Positions 405 to 15,513 are shown, numbered from the stretch's first letter. The stretch is DNA of 15,930 nucleotides from Nitrosopumilales archaeon (GCA_044507735.1 JBIQJB010000027.1:8533-24462); one strand, 5' to 3'. Notes: generated by a model not told the origin, from the sequence alone. Translations and numbers: made by a program.

Positions 405-584
405 ATGGCGGAAAAAGAAGAGAAAGCCACTCCATACAGGTGCCTCAAGTGCGATGCCGGCTTTGCAGATTTGGAAGCATTCAGAGAACACATGAAGGCT
501 TTGCGGCACAACGCGTGGACCGTATCTAGCAGCGAGCTTCTCAGGCTGGGCACGCTGTCCCCAAGAAAGATACTGTCTGGGTGA
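405..584 (+). CDS. C2H2-type zinc-finger microprotein (59 aa, not in ORF track)
   Basis: Manual translation: MAEKEEKATPYRCLKCDAGFADLEAFREHMKALRHNAWTVSSSELLRLGTLSPRKILSG*. Fits Y-x-C-x2-C-x3-F-x8-H-x5-H and fills the gap between the neighbouring ORFs. Confidence 0.75.
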   Translation: MAEKEEKATPYRCLKCDAGFADLEAFREHMKALRHNAWTVSSSELLRLGTLSPRKILSG

Positions 585-592
585 GCTGGCAA

Positions 593-886
593 ATGGCAAT
601 CCACACAGAAAGGATCCCGATAGACAGGTACGTCTGCGACTCTTGCAACGGTCCGCTAACAACAGACGACGGGGCATATGTCGTCACCGAGTCGTACGCG
701 GTCAGGTACGAGCACGGTCTGTACTGCCCGCGGTGCGCCGCAAGTCTTGTCAGGTACAGGGAAGAAGCCAGAGAAAAGCCGGAAGCGCCTCTGCGCGTGT
801 ACCTGCTCGGAGAGGTAGTCGACGACCTGAGCAGGGAGCTGTACATCAGCTCTTTTGAAGAGTTCGACCCGGAAGAGCACCGCTAA
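593..886 (+). CDS. small zinc-binding hypothetical protein (two CxxC)
   Basis: CDSC and CPRC motifs. ATG 593 is preceded by the SD-like GGTGAG at 580-585. The ORF track start is GTG 581. Confidence 0.7.
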   Translation: MAIHTERIPIDRYVCDSCNGPLTTDDGAYVVTESYAVRYEHGLYCPRCAASLVRYREEAREKPEAPLRVYLLGEVVDDLSRELYISSFEEFDPEEHR

Positions 887-942: not shown

Positions 943-1011
943 GGCCGGGGATGATGAAGCCTGTTATCTTTGATATCAGTAGATGATATCAACCACCCTG
1001 CTGACCCGGCC
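943..1011 (+). ncRNA. archaeal box C/D methylation-guide sRNA
   Basis: 7-bp terminal stem GGCCGGG (943-949)/CCCGGCC (1005-1011). Box C ATGATGA 951-957, 12-nt guide 958-969, D' TTGA 970-973, C'-like TAGATGA 980-986, 14-nt guide 987-1000, box D CTGA 1001-1004. Canonical K-turn register, intergenic, followed by a pyrimidine tract. Confidence 0.8.
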
Positions 1012-1191: not shown

Positions 1192-1518
1192 ATGTCAACC
1201 ACAACCACAAAAGCAACAACGTGCGTAGTTGAAAACAACAAGAAGCAGACATCAGCGCCTGTTTTTACAGGGGCGCTTGCACAGGTACCCCAGCAAGTCG
1301 AAAGCCAGAAGAAGAAAATGGTCAGGCTCTCCTCGCTGCTAAAGTACAGCGAGAGAAAGATGGCCGAGAAAAGGATGGCGGCAATTGCAGTGCAGGAATG
1401 CGACGGCGGCCCGATACGGTACCTGCACGCAAGCAGCATGGTTCCAGAGACGGCAGTGATAGTAAGGGACAGAGAAACTGGCGCGCTCGTAGGGCTTCCT
1501 GCCGTGATGGGCGGCTGA
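1192..1518 (+). CDS. hypothetical protein (~108 aa)
   Basis: ATG 1192 follows the GGTGA SD element and is in frame with track ORF 1066..1518. No recognisable motif. Confidence 0.6.
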   Translation: MSTTTTKATTCVVENNKKQTSAPVFTGALAQVPQQVESQKKKMVRLSSLLKYSERKMAEKRMAAIAVQECDGGPIRYLHASSMVPETAVIVRDRETGALVGLPAVMGG

Positions 1519-1768
1519 TCTCAGGCCAGCACTTAACCTGCCGCCCTATCTTTTTCCAGCTCCAACAACAACAACTCTGCTTCTTTCATGCGCTTGTGGA
1601 CCAACGCCGATACCGCGTCGGATTGGCCGCCGCGTGATCCCTTTCCTTCTTTTTTTCCTCTACGGCCACAGCTGGCAGACCTCCACGCGGTGTGGCCGGT
1701 AACGGCGCTTTAGGTCAGCATCCACTTGCTAGCGGACGCTGTCAAAGGCGCCGGCGAACTGCCAGAAC

Positions 1769-1783
1769 AAAAAGAATAGGTGA
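1769..1783 (+). promoter_or_regulatory. repeated leader/Shine-Dalgarno element AAAAAGAATAGGTGA, copy 2
   Basis: Identical to 1164-1178. Ends 8 nt upstream of ATG 1792. Confidence 0.6.
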
Positions 1784-1791
1784 AAGAGCAA

Positions 1792-4305
1792 ATGGAAAAC
1801 AACAACAACAACAATCAAAACAAAGAAGCGACATCGACCGAGACGATAAGGTCCACACAGGTACCCCAGATGTCAGATGTTTCTTCCGGCACCGACGCCG
1901 AGGCAATCAGCACAATCTACTACAAGCCCACGCTTGTAGAAGAAGACCCGCTGCCGCTTGACAGCAGTCAGCTCTCCTATGCCTCCAAGCTTCTCCAGGC
2001 GTCAAGCAACGGCCTAATCCCCGTCAAGCTGGAGCAAGATGTCATCATACAGCGCATATCGCACGACCTGTACTCCGACCCCAAGTCGGGATTCAGAGAG
2101 CTGTACAACAACGAGGCAAGGGCGTGCAGGATTGCCCGCAGGAACTACCCCGGCACAGACCCGCGCATAGTCGTGGCTCTAAACCCCTCAGAGCGCAAGC
2201 TGGTAATCCACGGAATCGACAGTATGGGGATGTCGCAGCAAAAGTTCCTCACCGTGTACACTGTGCTTGGCAGGAGCGACAACTTTGACTCGAAGGAAGT
2301 CGGCCAGTTTGGCTGCGGCCGCGCGAGCTATGTCACGCTGTCAGATATAATGGTGCTGGAGACGTACAGCAGGGAGACAGGCGAGAAATTCGCGGTAATG
2401 GGCAAGAACGGCGTCGGCTACAACGTGCTGCCACAACCTGCCGACCTTGACAGCTACGGCACAAGGATAGCCGTCACGCTGCGGGACGACATCAGCATCC
2501 CGGACCTCGTGCAGTACATTTTCGATGTCTGCAGGTTCTCCGGCGTCAGGACCACCGTCGAGCTTGAAGCCGACATAGACGACTTTGGCGACTCGTTCCA
2601 CGCGGGGCAGTACGAGCTTGGGCTGGAAAGCATGAAAGGTCACGTTGCCAGCATCCGCGAGAAGAACGGAGACGAGGAGAAACTATTGCTGGCCGTGGAA
2701 ATAGCAGACGACCCTGACATCTATCTGTACGGCGAGATAATCGCCTGCAAGAGCAGCTGGGAAGAGGATTACACCAGGATACTTGACAGGCAGTCCTCTT
2801 CTTCCTCGGCCGGCACGTATCTCGTCAACGTCCCGATTGAGGGCGACCCCGGAGAGCTGCCCCTTTCCCGGTGGATACTGAACATCAGAGACGAGAGAAA
2901 GTTCCCGCCCACAGCAGACAGGGAAAGGCTGACCGATGCTGCAATTACAGCCATCAGGGAAAAGATCATGGAAGCGCTGAAGCAGAGGCTTGAACCTGCG
3001 CTAAGGCTGGAATCAGTATCAGACTATGCGCGCTCGCCCTACCGCATCCTGTACACCTCTGGCACATACCACTACAGCAGCGGATTCGCCGAGCGCCTGC
3101 TGCCGCTGCTTGACGACCACACCAGGGAGGTAGTGGCGTTTGTCAGCACAAAGGTGCATGTGCTGCGCAGAAGGAGGCATGGCAGCAAGATGTGCAGGAC
3201 ACAGACAAAGATCTCCAGCCTGATAGACCGCCACCACCAGTACAATTGCATGCGGCTGTTCTGCGTCCGCAACCTCAGGTCTGCCGCCGCAGACGCGCTG
3301 AGGGAGAAGGCTGCGGGCGAGGTCTTTGAGGCCGACTCTGGGCTGACCGAGCTCATGGCCAAGTTCGGAGTGATAGACGGCGACCGGTATGTGAAGGAGA
3401 ACAACCTAAAGCGAACGACCTACGGCGAACCGGACACCATCACCGCCTACTACAGGCGCGGGTACAGCACATACACTGAAAAGATACACATCGACAGCAT
3501 TGTGGCAGAAGCTGAAGGCAAACAGGAGAAAGAAGAAGGAGAAGAAAGCGGCGTCTCAGGACATCCCAGACAACACCGTCTGCTACTGCCGCCGCTGATA
3601 GCCATGACATCTGAGCAAAAGGACGAGTATGCGCAGCTGATGGAACATGACACAAGATACAGGATAGTCGTGTGCGGCAGAAAGGACGCCAGAAAGAAAA
3701 GGCTGCTCGCCGGCAAGTGCACCTTCCTGGACGAATTTGTGTCCGCGGTGGCAATGAAGCATGTCATGACCTCGATGGGCACGATGACAGTAGAGGAGAC
3801 GCTTGAGTGCATCAGAGAAAGAGGCATGGAAATGGCGCAGCTTGTATACGACGACCCGCAGGCGCTGGCAGCATCCACTGCAAGGCTGCTGCATGGAAAT
3901 GGCGACGGCGACAGCCGAAAGGCGATACTGCCAGTCGTGGTCCCTGACGAGGACAGCAGGTATGAACTGAAGGTGTTCTACCGGTACCACGGGGTGGCCA
4001 CAACCCTCGGCTGGCGCGATGTGTTCAAGAAAGTAGAGCAAGGGTTGCTTGACGGTGAAAGACGCCTCGACGAACAGAAGGCAAACGCGATGATGCATTC
4101 CATGGCGGCGTTTGGCGGGCGGTACCCGGAGCTCTTTGAGCTGCTGGCGCACGCGATGGCAGATGCCGAATACTACAACATAGAGAAATTGCGCGGTTGT
4201 GCTTTCTCGCTGGCTGCCATGCTGGACGAGAGAGATGGTAATAGCAGCACGGCACATGCAGATGCAGCGGAATGCCTTGCCAAGGTCACCGAGCAGGGGA
4301 AGTAA
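1792..4305 (+). CDS. GHKL (Hsp90/HATPase_c-like) ATPase with long uncharacterised C-terminus
   Basis: Bergerat-fold motifs in order: DLYSD..FRELYNNE (ExxxN), DSMGMS, GQFGCG (GxxGxG), YGTRI. A later PTADRERL resembles the Hsp90 middle-domain SRE Arg loop. Start placed at ATG 1792 after the SD (track start 1780). Confidence 0.85.
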   Translation: MENNNNNNQNKEATSTETIRSTQVPQMSDVSSGTDAEAISTIYYKPTLVEEDPLPLDSSQLSYASKLLQASSNGLIPVKLEQDVIIQRISHDLYSDPKSGFRELYNNEARACRIARRNYPGTDPRIVVALNPSERKLVIHGIDSMGMSQQKFLTVYTVLGRSDNFDSKEVGQFGCGRASYVTLSDIMVLETYSRETGEKFAVMGKNGVGYNVLPQPADLDSYGTRIAVTLRDDISIPDLVQYIFDVCRFSGVRTTVELEADIDDFGDSFHAGQYELGLESMKGHVASIREKNGDEEKLLLAVEIADDPDIYLYGEIIACKSSWEEDYTRILDRQSSSSSAGTYLVNVPIEGDPGELPLSRWILNIRDERKFPPTADRERLTDAAITAIREKIMEALKQRLEPALRLESVSDYARSPYRILYTSGTYHYSSGFAERLLPLLDDHTREVVAFVSTKVHVLRRRRHGSKMCRTQTKISSLIDRHHQYNCMRLFCVRNLRSAAADALREKAAGEVFEADSGLTELMAKFGVIDGDRYVKENNLKRTTYGEPDTITAYYRRGYSTYTEKIHIDSIVAEAEGKQEKEEGEESGVSGHPRQHRLLLPPLIAMTSEQKDEYAQLMEHDTRYRIVVCGRKDARKKRLLAGKCTFLDEFVSAVAMKHVMTSMGTMTVEETLECIRERGMEMAQLVYDDPQALAASTARLLHGNGDGDSRKAILPVVVPDEDSRYELKVFYRYHGVATTLGWRDVFKKVEQGLLDGERRLDEQKANAMMHSMAAFGGRYPELFELLAHAMADAEYYNIEKLRGCAFSLAAMLDERDGNSSTAHADAAECLAKVTEQGK

Positions 4306-6692: not shown

Positions 6693-6913
6693 GTGAATAA
6701 GGAATCTTATTTCAGATGGGGCATGACACGAGCCGCCGCGTCTGCTCCTGCCACCATCCTCATGGTTATACTCCTCATTTCTGACACAAGCGGGGTCTCT
6801 GCGGTATCACTGAAAGAACGACATGAAGTGGTGGATACGGTGGGGGCGGGTAATGGTCCAGGGGGCGTGGCGGTAAACCCCATTACCAACAGGATATACG
6901 TGGTTAATTATTT
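6693..6913 (+). pseudogene. 5' part of a secreted YVTN beta-propeller protein, interrupted by the integrated element
   Basis: Signal-peptide-like segment (probable ATG 6723), then VVDTVGAGNGPGGVAVNPITNRIYVVNY, a YVTN blade that breaks at the TAATTATTT core. The frame continues at 15505. Confidence 0.85.
6905..6913 (+). repeat. attL core TAATTATTT
   Basis: Matches 15505-15513 and marks the exact point where YVTN homology stops. Confidence 0.85.
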
Positions 6914-6953
6914 GAGAATATCGCTTTCCACAAGCGTCTAATGCACCAAAAGC

Positions 6954-6975
6954 GTTGCATAACTTGTTGCATAGT
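6954..6975. repeat. left-end arm-type motifs (GTTGCATAAC-TT-GTTGCATA)
   Basis: GTTGCATAAC 6954-6963 is the exact reverse complement of GTTATGCAAC at 15483-15492 and 13984-13993. Two TGCA units 12 bp apart at both ends. Confidence 0.7.
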
Positions 6976-7158
6976 CGCACCGTTCAAAACAAACCGTGAA
7001 AAAATAGAAATACTAAGCTTTTACTTTGGCAACTATCAAGTAACACTAACAATTTTCCCGACTTTATTATTTGTTATCTGGTATATCTATCCCCCTACTA
7101 GCCCACTGATTCTGTCAGTTCTAAGCATTGTAATTGATCAAAAGAGGTTATCTAGCTA

Positions 7159-8523
7159 GTGGCTCAGATACGTGCTGACAAAGTACAGACAAGAAAAAGC
7201 AGACTAAGGGTTAAGGGATTAAAGGTCAAGGATAGAGAGAAGATCAAAGAAGCTATTGCAATCAGCATCCGAAACGGTAATTACACAACAAGAGAAATTG
7301 GCGTTGACATAGGCAAGGACCATAGCACTATATCGCGATATCTAGGTGAAATGGAAAGAGAAGGTACTTGGGGAATAAAGCGCGATGTCAACGGAAATAT
7401 CGTTATATCACTACAAAAACAGATAGAGCAAGCTTATCAAAAGTTAGATAGAGCACCGTTCAATAAACTGCCAGCTATACAGAAGTGGTTAGTATATTTG
7501 AAGTCTGGCAGGCTACAAGCTTCCCGCATTCAGTACGTTGTAAACATTGTACATGGGATATCTGACCAGCTTAAGGTGATGCCAGAGACGCTAGTTAGCT
7601 ATGGCATACCGATTGACTCGACAAAGAGAAAAGAAATAGCTATTGAATACTGGCAGAATTTCTTGGCATGGTTCAATACCGCGTACCCGCAGATGCAGCA
7701 TATAAACACCGTCAACGCGTACAGAAGCTTTCTTGCAGCTCACAGCATCAACTTTGCACATGGTGAGGGCAAAAGGTACGGGCTATCTACAACATCAGAG
7801 AGATTAGGAGAGTACAAAGATATCCTCTTGACGCCAGAACAGATTGCGGCAATTAACAAGAGACTTGAAAATGAACGCGATTGGGAATCTTGGAGCTTCA
7901 TGAACATTGACCTGCATACAGGAGCTAGGGCTTTTGCAATGGCATCTATGAACCGGGACAGAATAGCCTTTTCTCCACTGTTTAGAGTGGAACAGTTCGA
8001 GTCCAAGATAAAGCGTGGTGACTGGTATCTGACTAGAGAAGGCAAGTGGTGGGTAAAGTACCCAACAGAAGAATGCAGAGCTGTTGTAGAGACAGCTTAT
8101 GACAAACTTCCAAAAGGAAGGAAATTCCTGTTCTTTGAAGATGCAAAGAGTGAGAAGGCAAATGCTCTGCAAGCTTCTTATTTCATGTCAAAAATGGCTG
8201 TCAAATTCAAAAAGATATTTTCAGAGCTTGACAGAAATAGTTGGTTAAATGAGAAGACTAGGATATACGCGCTTGGCGATGGTCTGTACTTTAATGGGCA
8301 TCCATTGCATCTATTCAGGCATACTATGGCTCAGTACTATCTAGCTGCCACAAATTGGTCGCTCGCATATGTGGCAAGCTTGGGTGGTTGGGAGAATACA
8401 GAAGTGTTAAACAAGTGTTATGGAGGCATTCCAGAGCATATCAAAGCGCAAATAGCCAAGTGTGTTCATGTCAAGTTTGATACTCTTGATCTCAACACTA
8501 CGGTTAAACTTGTTTCGGTCTAG
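7159..8523 (+). CDS. tyrosine recombinase/integrase with N-terminal HTH
   Basis: Catalytic set R (HTGAR), K (ESK), HxxR (HLFRH), W (LGGW), Y (NKCY). N-terminal wHTH-like TTREIGVDIGKDHSTISRYLGEME. Adjacent to attL. Confidence 0.92.
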   Translation: MAQIRADKVQTRKSRLRVKGLKVKDREKIKEAIAISIRNGNYTTREIGVDIGKDHSTISRYLGEMEREGTWGIKRDVNGNIVISLQKQIEQAYQKLDRAPFNKLPAIQKWLVYLKSGRLQASRIQYVVNIVHGISDQLKVMPETLVSYGIPIDSTKRKEIAIEYWQNFLAWFNTAYPQMQHINTVNAYRSFLAAHSINFAHGEGKRYGLSTTSERLGEYKDILLTPEQIAAINKRLENERDWESWSFMNIDLHTGARAFAMASMNRDRIAFSPLFRVEQFESKIKRGDWYLTREGKWWVKYPTEECRAVVETAYDKLPKGRKFLFFEDAKSEKANALQASYFMSKMAVKFKKIFSELDRNSWLNEKTRIYALGDGLYFNGHPLHLFRHTMAQYYLAATNWSLAYVASLGGWENTEVLNKCYGGIPEHIKAQIAKCVHVKFDTLDLNTTVKLVSV

Positions 8524-15444: not shown

Positions 15445-15513
15445 TGTTGCATATAATATTACTCCCGGTCTGACTGCATCTTGTTATGCAACAAAATCGA
15501 AAACTAATTATTT
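15445..15513 (+). repeat. right end of the element: arm-type motifs plus attR core TAATTATTT (15505-15513)
   Basis: TGTTGCATA 15445-15453, TGCATC 15475-15480, GTTATGCAAC 15483-15492, then the core identical to 6905-6913. Confidence 0.85.

Follow-up and report, generated by a model that had tools for sequence, protein, structure and literature searches.

Archaeal box C/D small RNAs (sRNAs) are the closest described counterparts of a ∼69-nucleotide (nt) element found on the plus strand at positions 943-1011 of a 15,930-nt stretch of a metagenome-assembled genome of Nitrososphaera, a soil ammonia-oxidising archaeon (the whole stretch, G000:C18:8533-24462 of the 2.33-Mb host genome G000, is hereafter called the window). 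According to two studies (PMC4644070, PMC7994747), the targets of archaeal C/D guides cluster in helices 68-71 (H68-71) of ribosomal RNA (rRNA) and around the peptidyl transferase centre (PTC). For Pyrobaculum, a third study (PMC6009581) describes duplications with unrelated 5′ but similar 3′ flanks, replacement of guides, migration of targets by insertions and deletions, 28% orphan guides, and sRNA copies resembling miniature inverted-repeat transposable elements (MITEs). A guide of this class may also travel with a virus: v-snoRNA1 of Epstein-Barr virus (EBV), as presented in PMC13597479, is a virus-carried C/D guide which alters translation by way of methyl groups placed on conserved residues of a functional centre in the rRNA of the host.

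The window sRNA shares with the archaeal box C/D sRNAs the boxes C, D′, C′ and D with a terminal stem, the 12-nt spacer between C and D′, the +5 rule, a target in the rRNA core and the pairing of one apparently functional guide with one orphan guide. Its family resembles those of Pyrobaculum, as described in PMC6009581, in its similar 3′ and unrelated 5′ flanks, in guide replacement and in the 1-nt shift of a common guide core (here CCACCCT, compared between the window copy, G000b, and copy G081a of a related genome); it differs in belonging to a Nitrososphaera genome, in the 14-nt C′-D spacer, the D′ box TTGA and the degenerate C′ box, and in matching no Rfam family at threshold. EBV v-snoRNA1 is the closest precedent for the idea, put forward in the initial annotation of this DNA, of a guide carried by a mobile region, but it is eukaryotic and viral, whereas the window sRNA lies in an accessory stretch of chromosome. 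Among the papers listed in the literature searches made, none describes C/D sRNAs of Nitrososphaera. The element at 943-1011 is most probably a functional box C/D sRNA gene, the D′ guide of which would direct 2′-O-methylation of the equivalent of Escherichia coli A2450 in 23S rRNA.

Architecture and predicted 23S rRNA target of the window sRNA

In agreement with the initial annotation, the complete C/D layout can be read directly from the window, with boxes C and D in kink-turn (K-turn) register. The RNA is closed by a 7-base-pair (bp) terminal stem, the 5′ arm of which, GGCCGGG (943-949), is the perfect complement of the 3′ arm CCCGGCC (1005-1011) and is the same in all nine distinct sequences of the family described below; the predicted fold (-27.3 kcal/mol, z -2.56) closes at this stem. 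A spacer G (950) stands between the 5′ arm and box C (ATGATGA, 951-957), and G950, A951 and T952 would constitute the 3-nt bulge of the K-turn, by the register of the established C/D motif. Box C is followed by the 12-nt D′ guide AGCCTGTTATCT (958-969), box D′ (TTGA, 970-973), the D′-C′ loop TATCAG (974-979), which is 6, 9, 12 or 16 nt long in the family, and a degenerate C′-like box (TAGATGA, 980-986). The 14-nt D spacer/guide TATCAACCACCCTG (987-1000) consists of a conserved TATCAA (987-992) and a hypervariable 8-nt part, CCACCCTG (993-1000), and leads to box D (CTGA, 1001-1004). Across the nine distinct copies the stems and boxes D′ and D are invariant, box C varies in one column (ACGATGA in the genome G031), and the C′ box, with the variants TAGAGGA, TAGACGA, CAGATGA and TGGATGA, retains G-A at positions 3-4 and 6-7 throughout, D′ and C′ both keeping the G-A dinucleotides on which sheared pairs depend; the constancy of D′ must be read with the fact that the metagenome search pattern fixed this box. 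The conserved 3′ flank (1012-1049), common to the paralog and the orthologs, contains two T-runs (1036-1039 and 1043-1048) and probably marks the end of the primary transcript, by analogy with oligo-T termination in archaea.

Such a layout is hardly to be expected by chance in this genome. A strict regular expression (C, 11-13 nt, D′, loop, C′, 11-14 nt, D) finds two sites in the 2.33 Mb, namely the window sRNA and its paralog. A relaxed scan requiring box C, box D and a stem of at least 4 bp gives 28 genome sites versus six in the reversed genome, and with both internal boxes added, two versus none. In E-value mode, nine of the ten weak Rfam matches are to C/D snoRNA/sRNA families, all of them on the plus strand and in the same register, the best being SNORD41 (21 bits against a threshold of 41, E 0.08); the tenth is to a long non-coding RNA on the minus strand. 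The host also encodes the protein partners of the class: fibrillarin (PF01269, 297 bits) and Nop5 (PF01798, 233 bits), the genes of which adjoin each other on contig C42, and L7Ae (PF01248, 98 bits), encoded on C35. A coding reading of the overlapping short open reading frames (ORFs) at 855-986 and 983-1174 was rejected, since the orthologs differ by indels of 1, 3 and 10 nt; a coding frame is disfavoured by the loop of 16 nt, which exceeds the 6-nt form by 10 nt, and by a difference of 1 nt ahead of box C.

The host rRNA genes were located at G000:C3:8103-11074 (23S), C3:6383-7852 (16S) and C42:51567-51686 (5S). Aligned with the host's own 23S rRNA, the D′ guide is complementary to GGATAACAGGCT at positions 2520-2531 of the large-subunit (LSU) rRNA, with 11 Watson-Crick pairs, one G-U pair and a duplex energy of -17.9 kcal/mol, which bears out the earlier claim that it is antisense to the conserved 23S strand 2446-2457 (E. 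coli numbering). The runner-up site among LSU, small-subunit (SSU) and 5S rRNA and 20 transfer RNAs (tRNAs) scores 9; out of 20,000 12-mers drawn at random from the genome, 47 scored at least 11.5, as did 59 of 20,000 shuffled versions of the guide. The base T965, which occupies the +5 position, stands opposite host LSU A2524. In the 2903-nt RefSeq copy of the E. coli 23S rRNA the segment GATAACAGGCT begins at 2446; judging by its length, this copy appears to be one nt short of the conventional 2904, and its G would be the conventional G2447. We take the conventional numbering to place U2449 and, as the second A, A2451 in this segment, and the +5 partner, being the first A after the U, is therefore the A2450 equivalent, the very nucleotide predicted by the initial annotation. 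The eukaryotic guides snR38 and SNORD1 are antisense to the same domain V strand, which is universally conserved, and methylate the G2446 equivalent (yeast Gm2815, human Gm4392); their target nucleotide lies 4 nt away.

The target strand is identical in all of the 16 genomes, out of 72 of the genus, in which it is assembled. Among the other carriers of the family, the 23S segment is unassembled in G081 and G085 (as it is in the non-carrier G017) and represented by a 30-nt piece only in G031, and the fit of their guides to their own rRNA thus rests on the invariance of the strand in 16 other genus genomes. A site at G000:C37:56372 (+) that is exactly complementary to the D′ guide was dismissed as a target because it is antisense to a 346-amino-acid (aa) Kelch-like ORF; by our own estimate, ∼0.3 exact 12-mers are expected by chance in the host genome.

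Taken together with the presence of the protein partners, the complementarity suggests the following course of events. The ∼69-nt sRNA, if expressed, would assemble with host L7Ae, Nop5 and fibrillarin into a ribonucleoprotein, its D′ guide would base-pair with one side of the domain V central loop in 23S rRNA, and the adenosine at LSU 2524, which adjoins A2451, would receive a 2′-O-methyl group, most likely while the large subunit is being assembled and the rRNA is still a precursor. Base-pairing of guide and 23S rRNA may itself also aid folding.

Members of the family and turnover of their guides

A BLAST search of 61 relatives with a 96-nt region returned only G031 and the paralog, the remaining matches being short and at chance level, and a covariance model (R1) was used instead over 72 genus genomes (counts out of 72 include the unpublished genomes G009, G022, G025, G072 and G088, none of which is a carrier). 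The family comprises 14 copies with nine distinct sequences, distributed over four of the 72 Nitrososphaera genomes and five metagenome contigs, and in three of the four carrier genomes two copies stand in tandem. The paralog of the window sRNA (copy G000a, with the same scaffold) lies 2.8 kb upstream, beyond the window, at G000:C18:6653-6721; the metagenome loci L103 and L104, identical to G000, give a true distance between the two copies of 3078 nt across a 100-N gap in C18. G081 has two copies 3.2 kb apart and a partial third one, G085 two copies 2.5 kb apart, and G031 a single copy on a 3.2-kb contig, while the metagenome contigs contribute seven further copies, one of them within a contig of 252 kb. 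The seven full genome copies score 74-97 bits, the partial copy of G081 38.5 bits, and all other matches at most 26.5 bits. The metagenome copies were retrieved with a pattern fixing the 5′ half and the genome copies through the covariance model, so that the invariance of the scaffold is partly by construction for the former, but not for the latter.

By the identity of Nop5 to that of G000 (95% in G081, 94% in G085, 89-94% over two fragments in G031) the carriers are each other's nearest kin. The sole near relative without a copy is G017 (Nop5 93%, genome 79% complete), all others being at 90% or less, and no copy was detected by the covariance model with default filters in the next-nearest genomes G017, G075, G078, G092 and G005. 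Among one genome per species from 185,579 species, the exact scaffold pattern was present in three records only, which are the very contigs of G081, G031 and G085. This distribution fits a clade-restricted, vertically kept gene; the homologs, of which the initial annotation had asked whether they track with mobile loci, follow a shallow Nitrososphaera clade.

The D′ guides fall into two classes. In the PTC class, to which the window sRNA belongs, the guide reads AGCCTGTTA-N-CT, N being T in G000b, G in G081b and A in L102/L106. In the other class it is ATTCCATTCATG (G000a, G081a, G031 and L105) or, in both G085 copies, ATCCCATTCAT followed by A or G. The guide ATTCCATTCATG of G000a forms 11 of 12 Watson-Crick pairs with LSU 2044-2055 in the helix 71 region; scores of at least 11 were obtained by 356 of 20,000 random 12-mers. 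Both target sites of the family thus fall within the methylation hot-spots of H68-71 and the PTC surroundings. A search for a core guide to the helix 71 target next to box C gave 13 pattern matches in 11 of 72 genomes versus seven in the control, and the guide itself was found only in five family copies. The distal D guide, as opposed to the D′ guide, is variable at all eight columns following TATCAA among the nine copies, and the D guide of the paralog, like that of the window sRNA, is an orphan.

In the comparison of G000b with G081b, the flanks are identical at 133 of 150 and 90 of 99 positions, the boxes and stems at 48 of 50 and the D′ guide at 11 of 12, whereas the distal D guide agrees at one of eight. 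With flanks ∼90% identical, such a divergence means that the distal D guide was replaced wholesale and not eroded by point mutation. The 7-mer CCACCCT of G000b is present, shifted by one base, in G081a, and the G031 copy, although situated at a b-type locus, carries exactly both guides of the a-type metagenome copy L105; from these two observations we infer exchange between paralogs. The duplication that separates G000a from G000b covers the sRNA and ∼40 nt of its 3′ flank (108 nt at 79% identity). A separately duplicated 260-nt block (76.5%) spans the start of two downstream large ORFs, the rest of which are unrelated. The family would accordingly be a young one of a small Nitrososphaera subclade, which may have arisen by duplication of the sRNA with its 3′ flank and diversified via replacement of whole guides and exchange between copies, the D′ guide being held by selection in two classes (PTC strand and helix 71) and the distal D guide behaving as a fast-turning orphan. 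It would offer a clean recent case of guide evolution, in which tandem duplication with the 3′ flank, guide replacement, paralog exchange and orphan turnover are seen on a near-frozen scaffold.

Duplicated elements bounded by 7-bp terminal inverted repeats, present in more than one copy per genome and equipped with orphan D guides could also be decaying or MITE-like repeats which merely resemble C/D sRNAs and have no present function, all the more so as sRNA-resembling MITE-like elements are described in Pyrobaculum (PMC6009581), and as G000:C51 bears a degenerate relic and G081:C23 an incomplete copy. Such an origin seems very unlikely, however, given that the scaffold is conserved beyond its flanks and is retained even next to unrelated genes, that both D′ guide classes match the 23S core far above chance, and that there are just two full copies per genome at fixed loci. 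The degenerate copy, at G000:C51:4367-4440 (23.7 bits), has lost box C and retains the region of the 3′ stem together with the motif of the 3′ flank; the partial one is at G081:C23:413-461 (38.5 bits). In addition, eight other genus genomes (L045-L047, L050, L052, L053, L055 and L058) share a conserved sequence of 53 nt, in which a stem GGCCGAG / CTCGACC accompanies an ATGATGA resembling box C; it scores ∼23 bits with the family model and may be another short C/D-like RNA or a coding sequence.

A genus-wide guide on the same strand and the weight of the evidence

The relaxed scan also revealed a second C/D sRNA candidate at G000:C46, ∼501-568, which has a 6-bp stem, box C ATGATGA, the guide TCTGTTATCCGT within a 12-nt C-D′ spacer, D′ GGGA, C′ GCGATGA, a 15-nt C′-D spacer and box D CTGA. 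The pattern of TGATGA, 1-3 nt and CTGTTATC is present in 32 of 72 genus genomes versus four matches in the reversed control, and its form TGATGA[CT]CTGTTATC in 30 of 72. All of the 26 core sequences inspected are whole sRNAs with a D′ of the type nnGA (the homologs are loci L069-L097), and the carriers G031, G081 and G085 possess the core sRNA as well. The D′ guide of this sRNA, which pairs with LSU 2520-2529, is predicted by the +5 rule, with D′ read at +13, to address the A2448 equivalent; the D guide finds its complement in the strand ACCGTCGTGA in the region of helices 90-93, both guides thus matching domain V of 23S rRNA. The core sRNA and the window sRNA have in common the 23S strand, the layout with a long C′-D spacer and the host machinery; they differ in that the core one has an unrelated scaffold, is genus-wide rather than clade-restricted, is shifted in register by 2 nt and has a target for its D guide.

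Since a genus-wide core guide addresses the A2451 strand, guided methylation beside the PTC would be ordinary housekeeping in this genus, just as among archaea elsewhere (PMC4644070, PMC7994747), and the window sRNA appears to add a second guide on the same strand, 2 nt out of register. As to whether the orthologs are ordinary sRNAs with a known target, a point which the initial annotation had regarded as decisive for novelty, the answer is divided: the strand is indeed covered by a genus-wide guide as well, but the family itself is lineage-specific. Two adjacent ribose methylations are predicted on the A2451-bearing strand, at the A2448 and A2450 equivalents. A literature search listed nothing on O-methylation at A2450; the A2448 or A2450 equivalents might figure as predicted targets of other archaea in the site tables of PMC4644070 and PMC6009581. 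The present family and the widespread core guide add well-supported C/D guides to the annotation of Nitrososphaera.

Several observations weigh against the assignment of the window sRNA as a functional guide. Rfam gives no match in the window at gathering score, the C/D-family matches being confined to E-value mode. Boxes D′ (TTGA) and C′ (TAGATGA) are degenerate, with non-consensus first positions, and the C′-D spacer is 14 nt in every family copy versus the canonical 12, to which the C-D′ spacer conforms; given the 15 nt of the core sRNA, the long D spacer looks like a lineage habit. The predicted fold also contains a 9-bp Watson-Crick hairpin of TTGATATCA and TGATATCAA, which spans D′ and C′; it is a competitor of the internal K-loop and could account for the conservation of TATCAA. 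The terminal stem shows no variation whatsoever, and support from covariation is therefore nil. No target in LSU, SSU or 5S rRNA or in 26 tRNAs was found for any of the eight D-guide variants, the best scores of which (9-10 of 12) equal the mode for random 12-mers. At the third position from D′ the three orthologs have T, G and A, respectively, of which T alone can pair with the A that is invariant in the target strand, which means that pairing at this position is not under selection; the efficiency of methylation may differ between lineages. G031 has a guide of the other class at the syntenic locus, so either the PTC guide is dispensable in this genome or its other copy is unassembled. Finally, out of 24 sequencing runs listed, 20 contain part of the stretch and one of these is recorded as RNA; this run (X19, contigs from a polyA library) covers window positions 1272-1525, outside the sRNA, and is uninformative either way.

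Genomic surroundings

A 101-aa Zn-ribbon-like ORF (581-886, plus strand; CxxC...CxxC in translation, no Pfam family) ends 57 nt 5′ of the sRNA, which may lie within its 3′ untranslated region (UTR), be co-transcribed with it and be processed from its transcript. This position, together with the lack of an obvious TATA box at -25 to -30 and the duplication of the 260-nt block over the starts of the downstream large ORFs along with the sRNA, could be taken as an indication that the element acts in cis, as a K-turn bound by L7Ae that would regulate either the Zn-ribbon gene, from its 3′ UTR, or the downstream genes, from their 5′ leader, its rRNA complementarity being incidental or serving as an assembly chaperone without methylation; binding of L7Ae to mRNA in archaea is reported in PMC5539422. 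One must bear in mind, though, that the sRNA is followed by conserved T-runs, that the copies of G085 are flanked by other genes, some of them on the opposite strand, and that protein binding alone leaves unexplained why a 12-nt rRNA-complementary guide is kept in exact +5 register. A purely cis-acting role is thus considered highly improbable.

The accessory character of the neighbours, which the initial annotation had pointed out, was confirmed. The Zn-ribbon ORF is present in two of 72 genus genomes, and the 841-aa protein encoded at 1780-4305 (plus strand) in four of 72; the latter shows a weak N-terminal match to the HSP90 family (GHKL ATPase; NCBIfam NF010683, E 3e-10, 39 bits vs a cut-off of 455) and no Pfam match. 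Most of the window ORFs belong to no family. Between the two sRNA copies, G000:C18:7377-8414 (L034) encodes a 345-aa ArdC-like protein (PHROG 7245, anti-restriction, E 5e-7; Pfam ArdcN E 0.005, below cut-off), which has its first ∼35 residues and the upstream region in common with the otherwise unrelated 841-aa ORF, within the 260-nt block. The locus is syntenic among G000, G081 and the metagenome locus L102, whereas the two copies of G085 stand on either side of NERD-nucleotidyltransferase and HEPN genes, neighbours unrelated to those of G000, and yet the scaffold is retained. A weak IS240-type transposase fragment is located at the start of the contig. The ORFs scanned included neither an integrase nor any gene for conjugation or virions, and no attachment (att) site was found; PADLOC recognised no defence system, and the viral contig collection gave no match to either half of the scaffold. 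On this evidence the region appears to be accessory and recombining.

In such surroundings it could be supposed that the guide belongs to an integrated mobile element or accessory island, the additional methyls of which, at the PTC and helix 71, change, protect or slow down host ribosomes, as an archaeal counterpart of v-snoRNA1. The anti-restriction gene between the copies, the NERD-nucleotidyltransferase and HEPN genes flanked by the copies in G085, the IS240-type fragment, the IS-like repeat described below, the rarity of the neighbouring ORFs, the degenerate third copy on C51 and the precedent of a virus-encoded rRNA methylation guide (PMC13597479) all speak in favour of this supposition. 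Nevertheless, the genes of mobility listed above are missing from the ORFs scanned, viral contigs do not match, the scaffold occurs in three species-level records only, the carriers are nearest kin with synteny between G000, G081 and L102, one metagenome copy sits inside a 252-kb contig, and the same 23S strand is already the target of the genus-wide core guide. The proposal of the initial annotation that a mobile region remodels, protects or throttles ribosomes consequently seems unlikely: the present evidence does not show a mobile element manipulating ribosomes, and the RNA is of a well-known class. It would rather be an sRNA situated in a variable accessory stretch of the chromosome that behaves as a host gene for ribosome modification.

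An even more doubtful, though attractive, extension is that the sRNA is island cargo, a ribosome editor adding lineage-specific 2′-O-methyls at the A2450 and helix 71 equivalents atop the core pattern, with its distal D guide under diversifying selection for fast-changing non-ribosomal targets, such as the RNAs of competing mobile elements. If true, this would make it an archaeal analogue of the virus-encoded snoRNA with a programmable second guide.

Further features of the window were noted. An inverted repeat, GCTCTG ... CAGAGC around TGGCAGCC, lies at 1060-1100, 3′ of the T-runs of the sRNA and 5′ of a 108-aa ORF, and is retained in all four b-locus orthologs. At ∼6900-8500 there is a 1.6-kb repeat with two ORFs, one of 72 aa and one of 454 aa, the latter showing a weak HTH_38 match at its N-terminus; many genomes of the genus carry several copies of the repeat at 73-82% identity (among them those on G000:C40, C3 and C46), and it looks like an insertion sequence (IS). 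In the DNA search of the whole window against the genus, the four candidates scored per genome were taken by copies of this IS, and the search is no absence test for the sRNA neighbourhood. A 69-nt segment at 15445-15513, with the inverted repeat TGTTGCATA ... TATGCAACA, is neither a tRNA nor a match to any Rfam family; it recurs at 84-93% identity in at least six other genus genomes, and on G031:C53 the IS-like repeat has a copy directly beside it.

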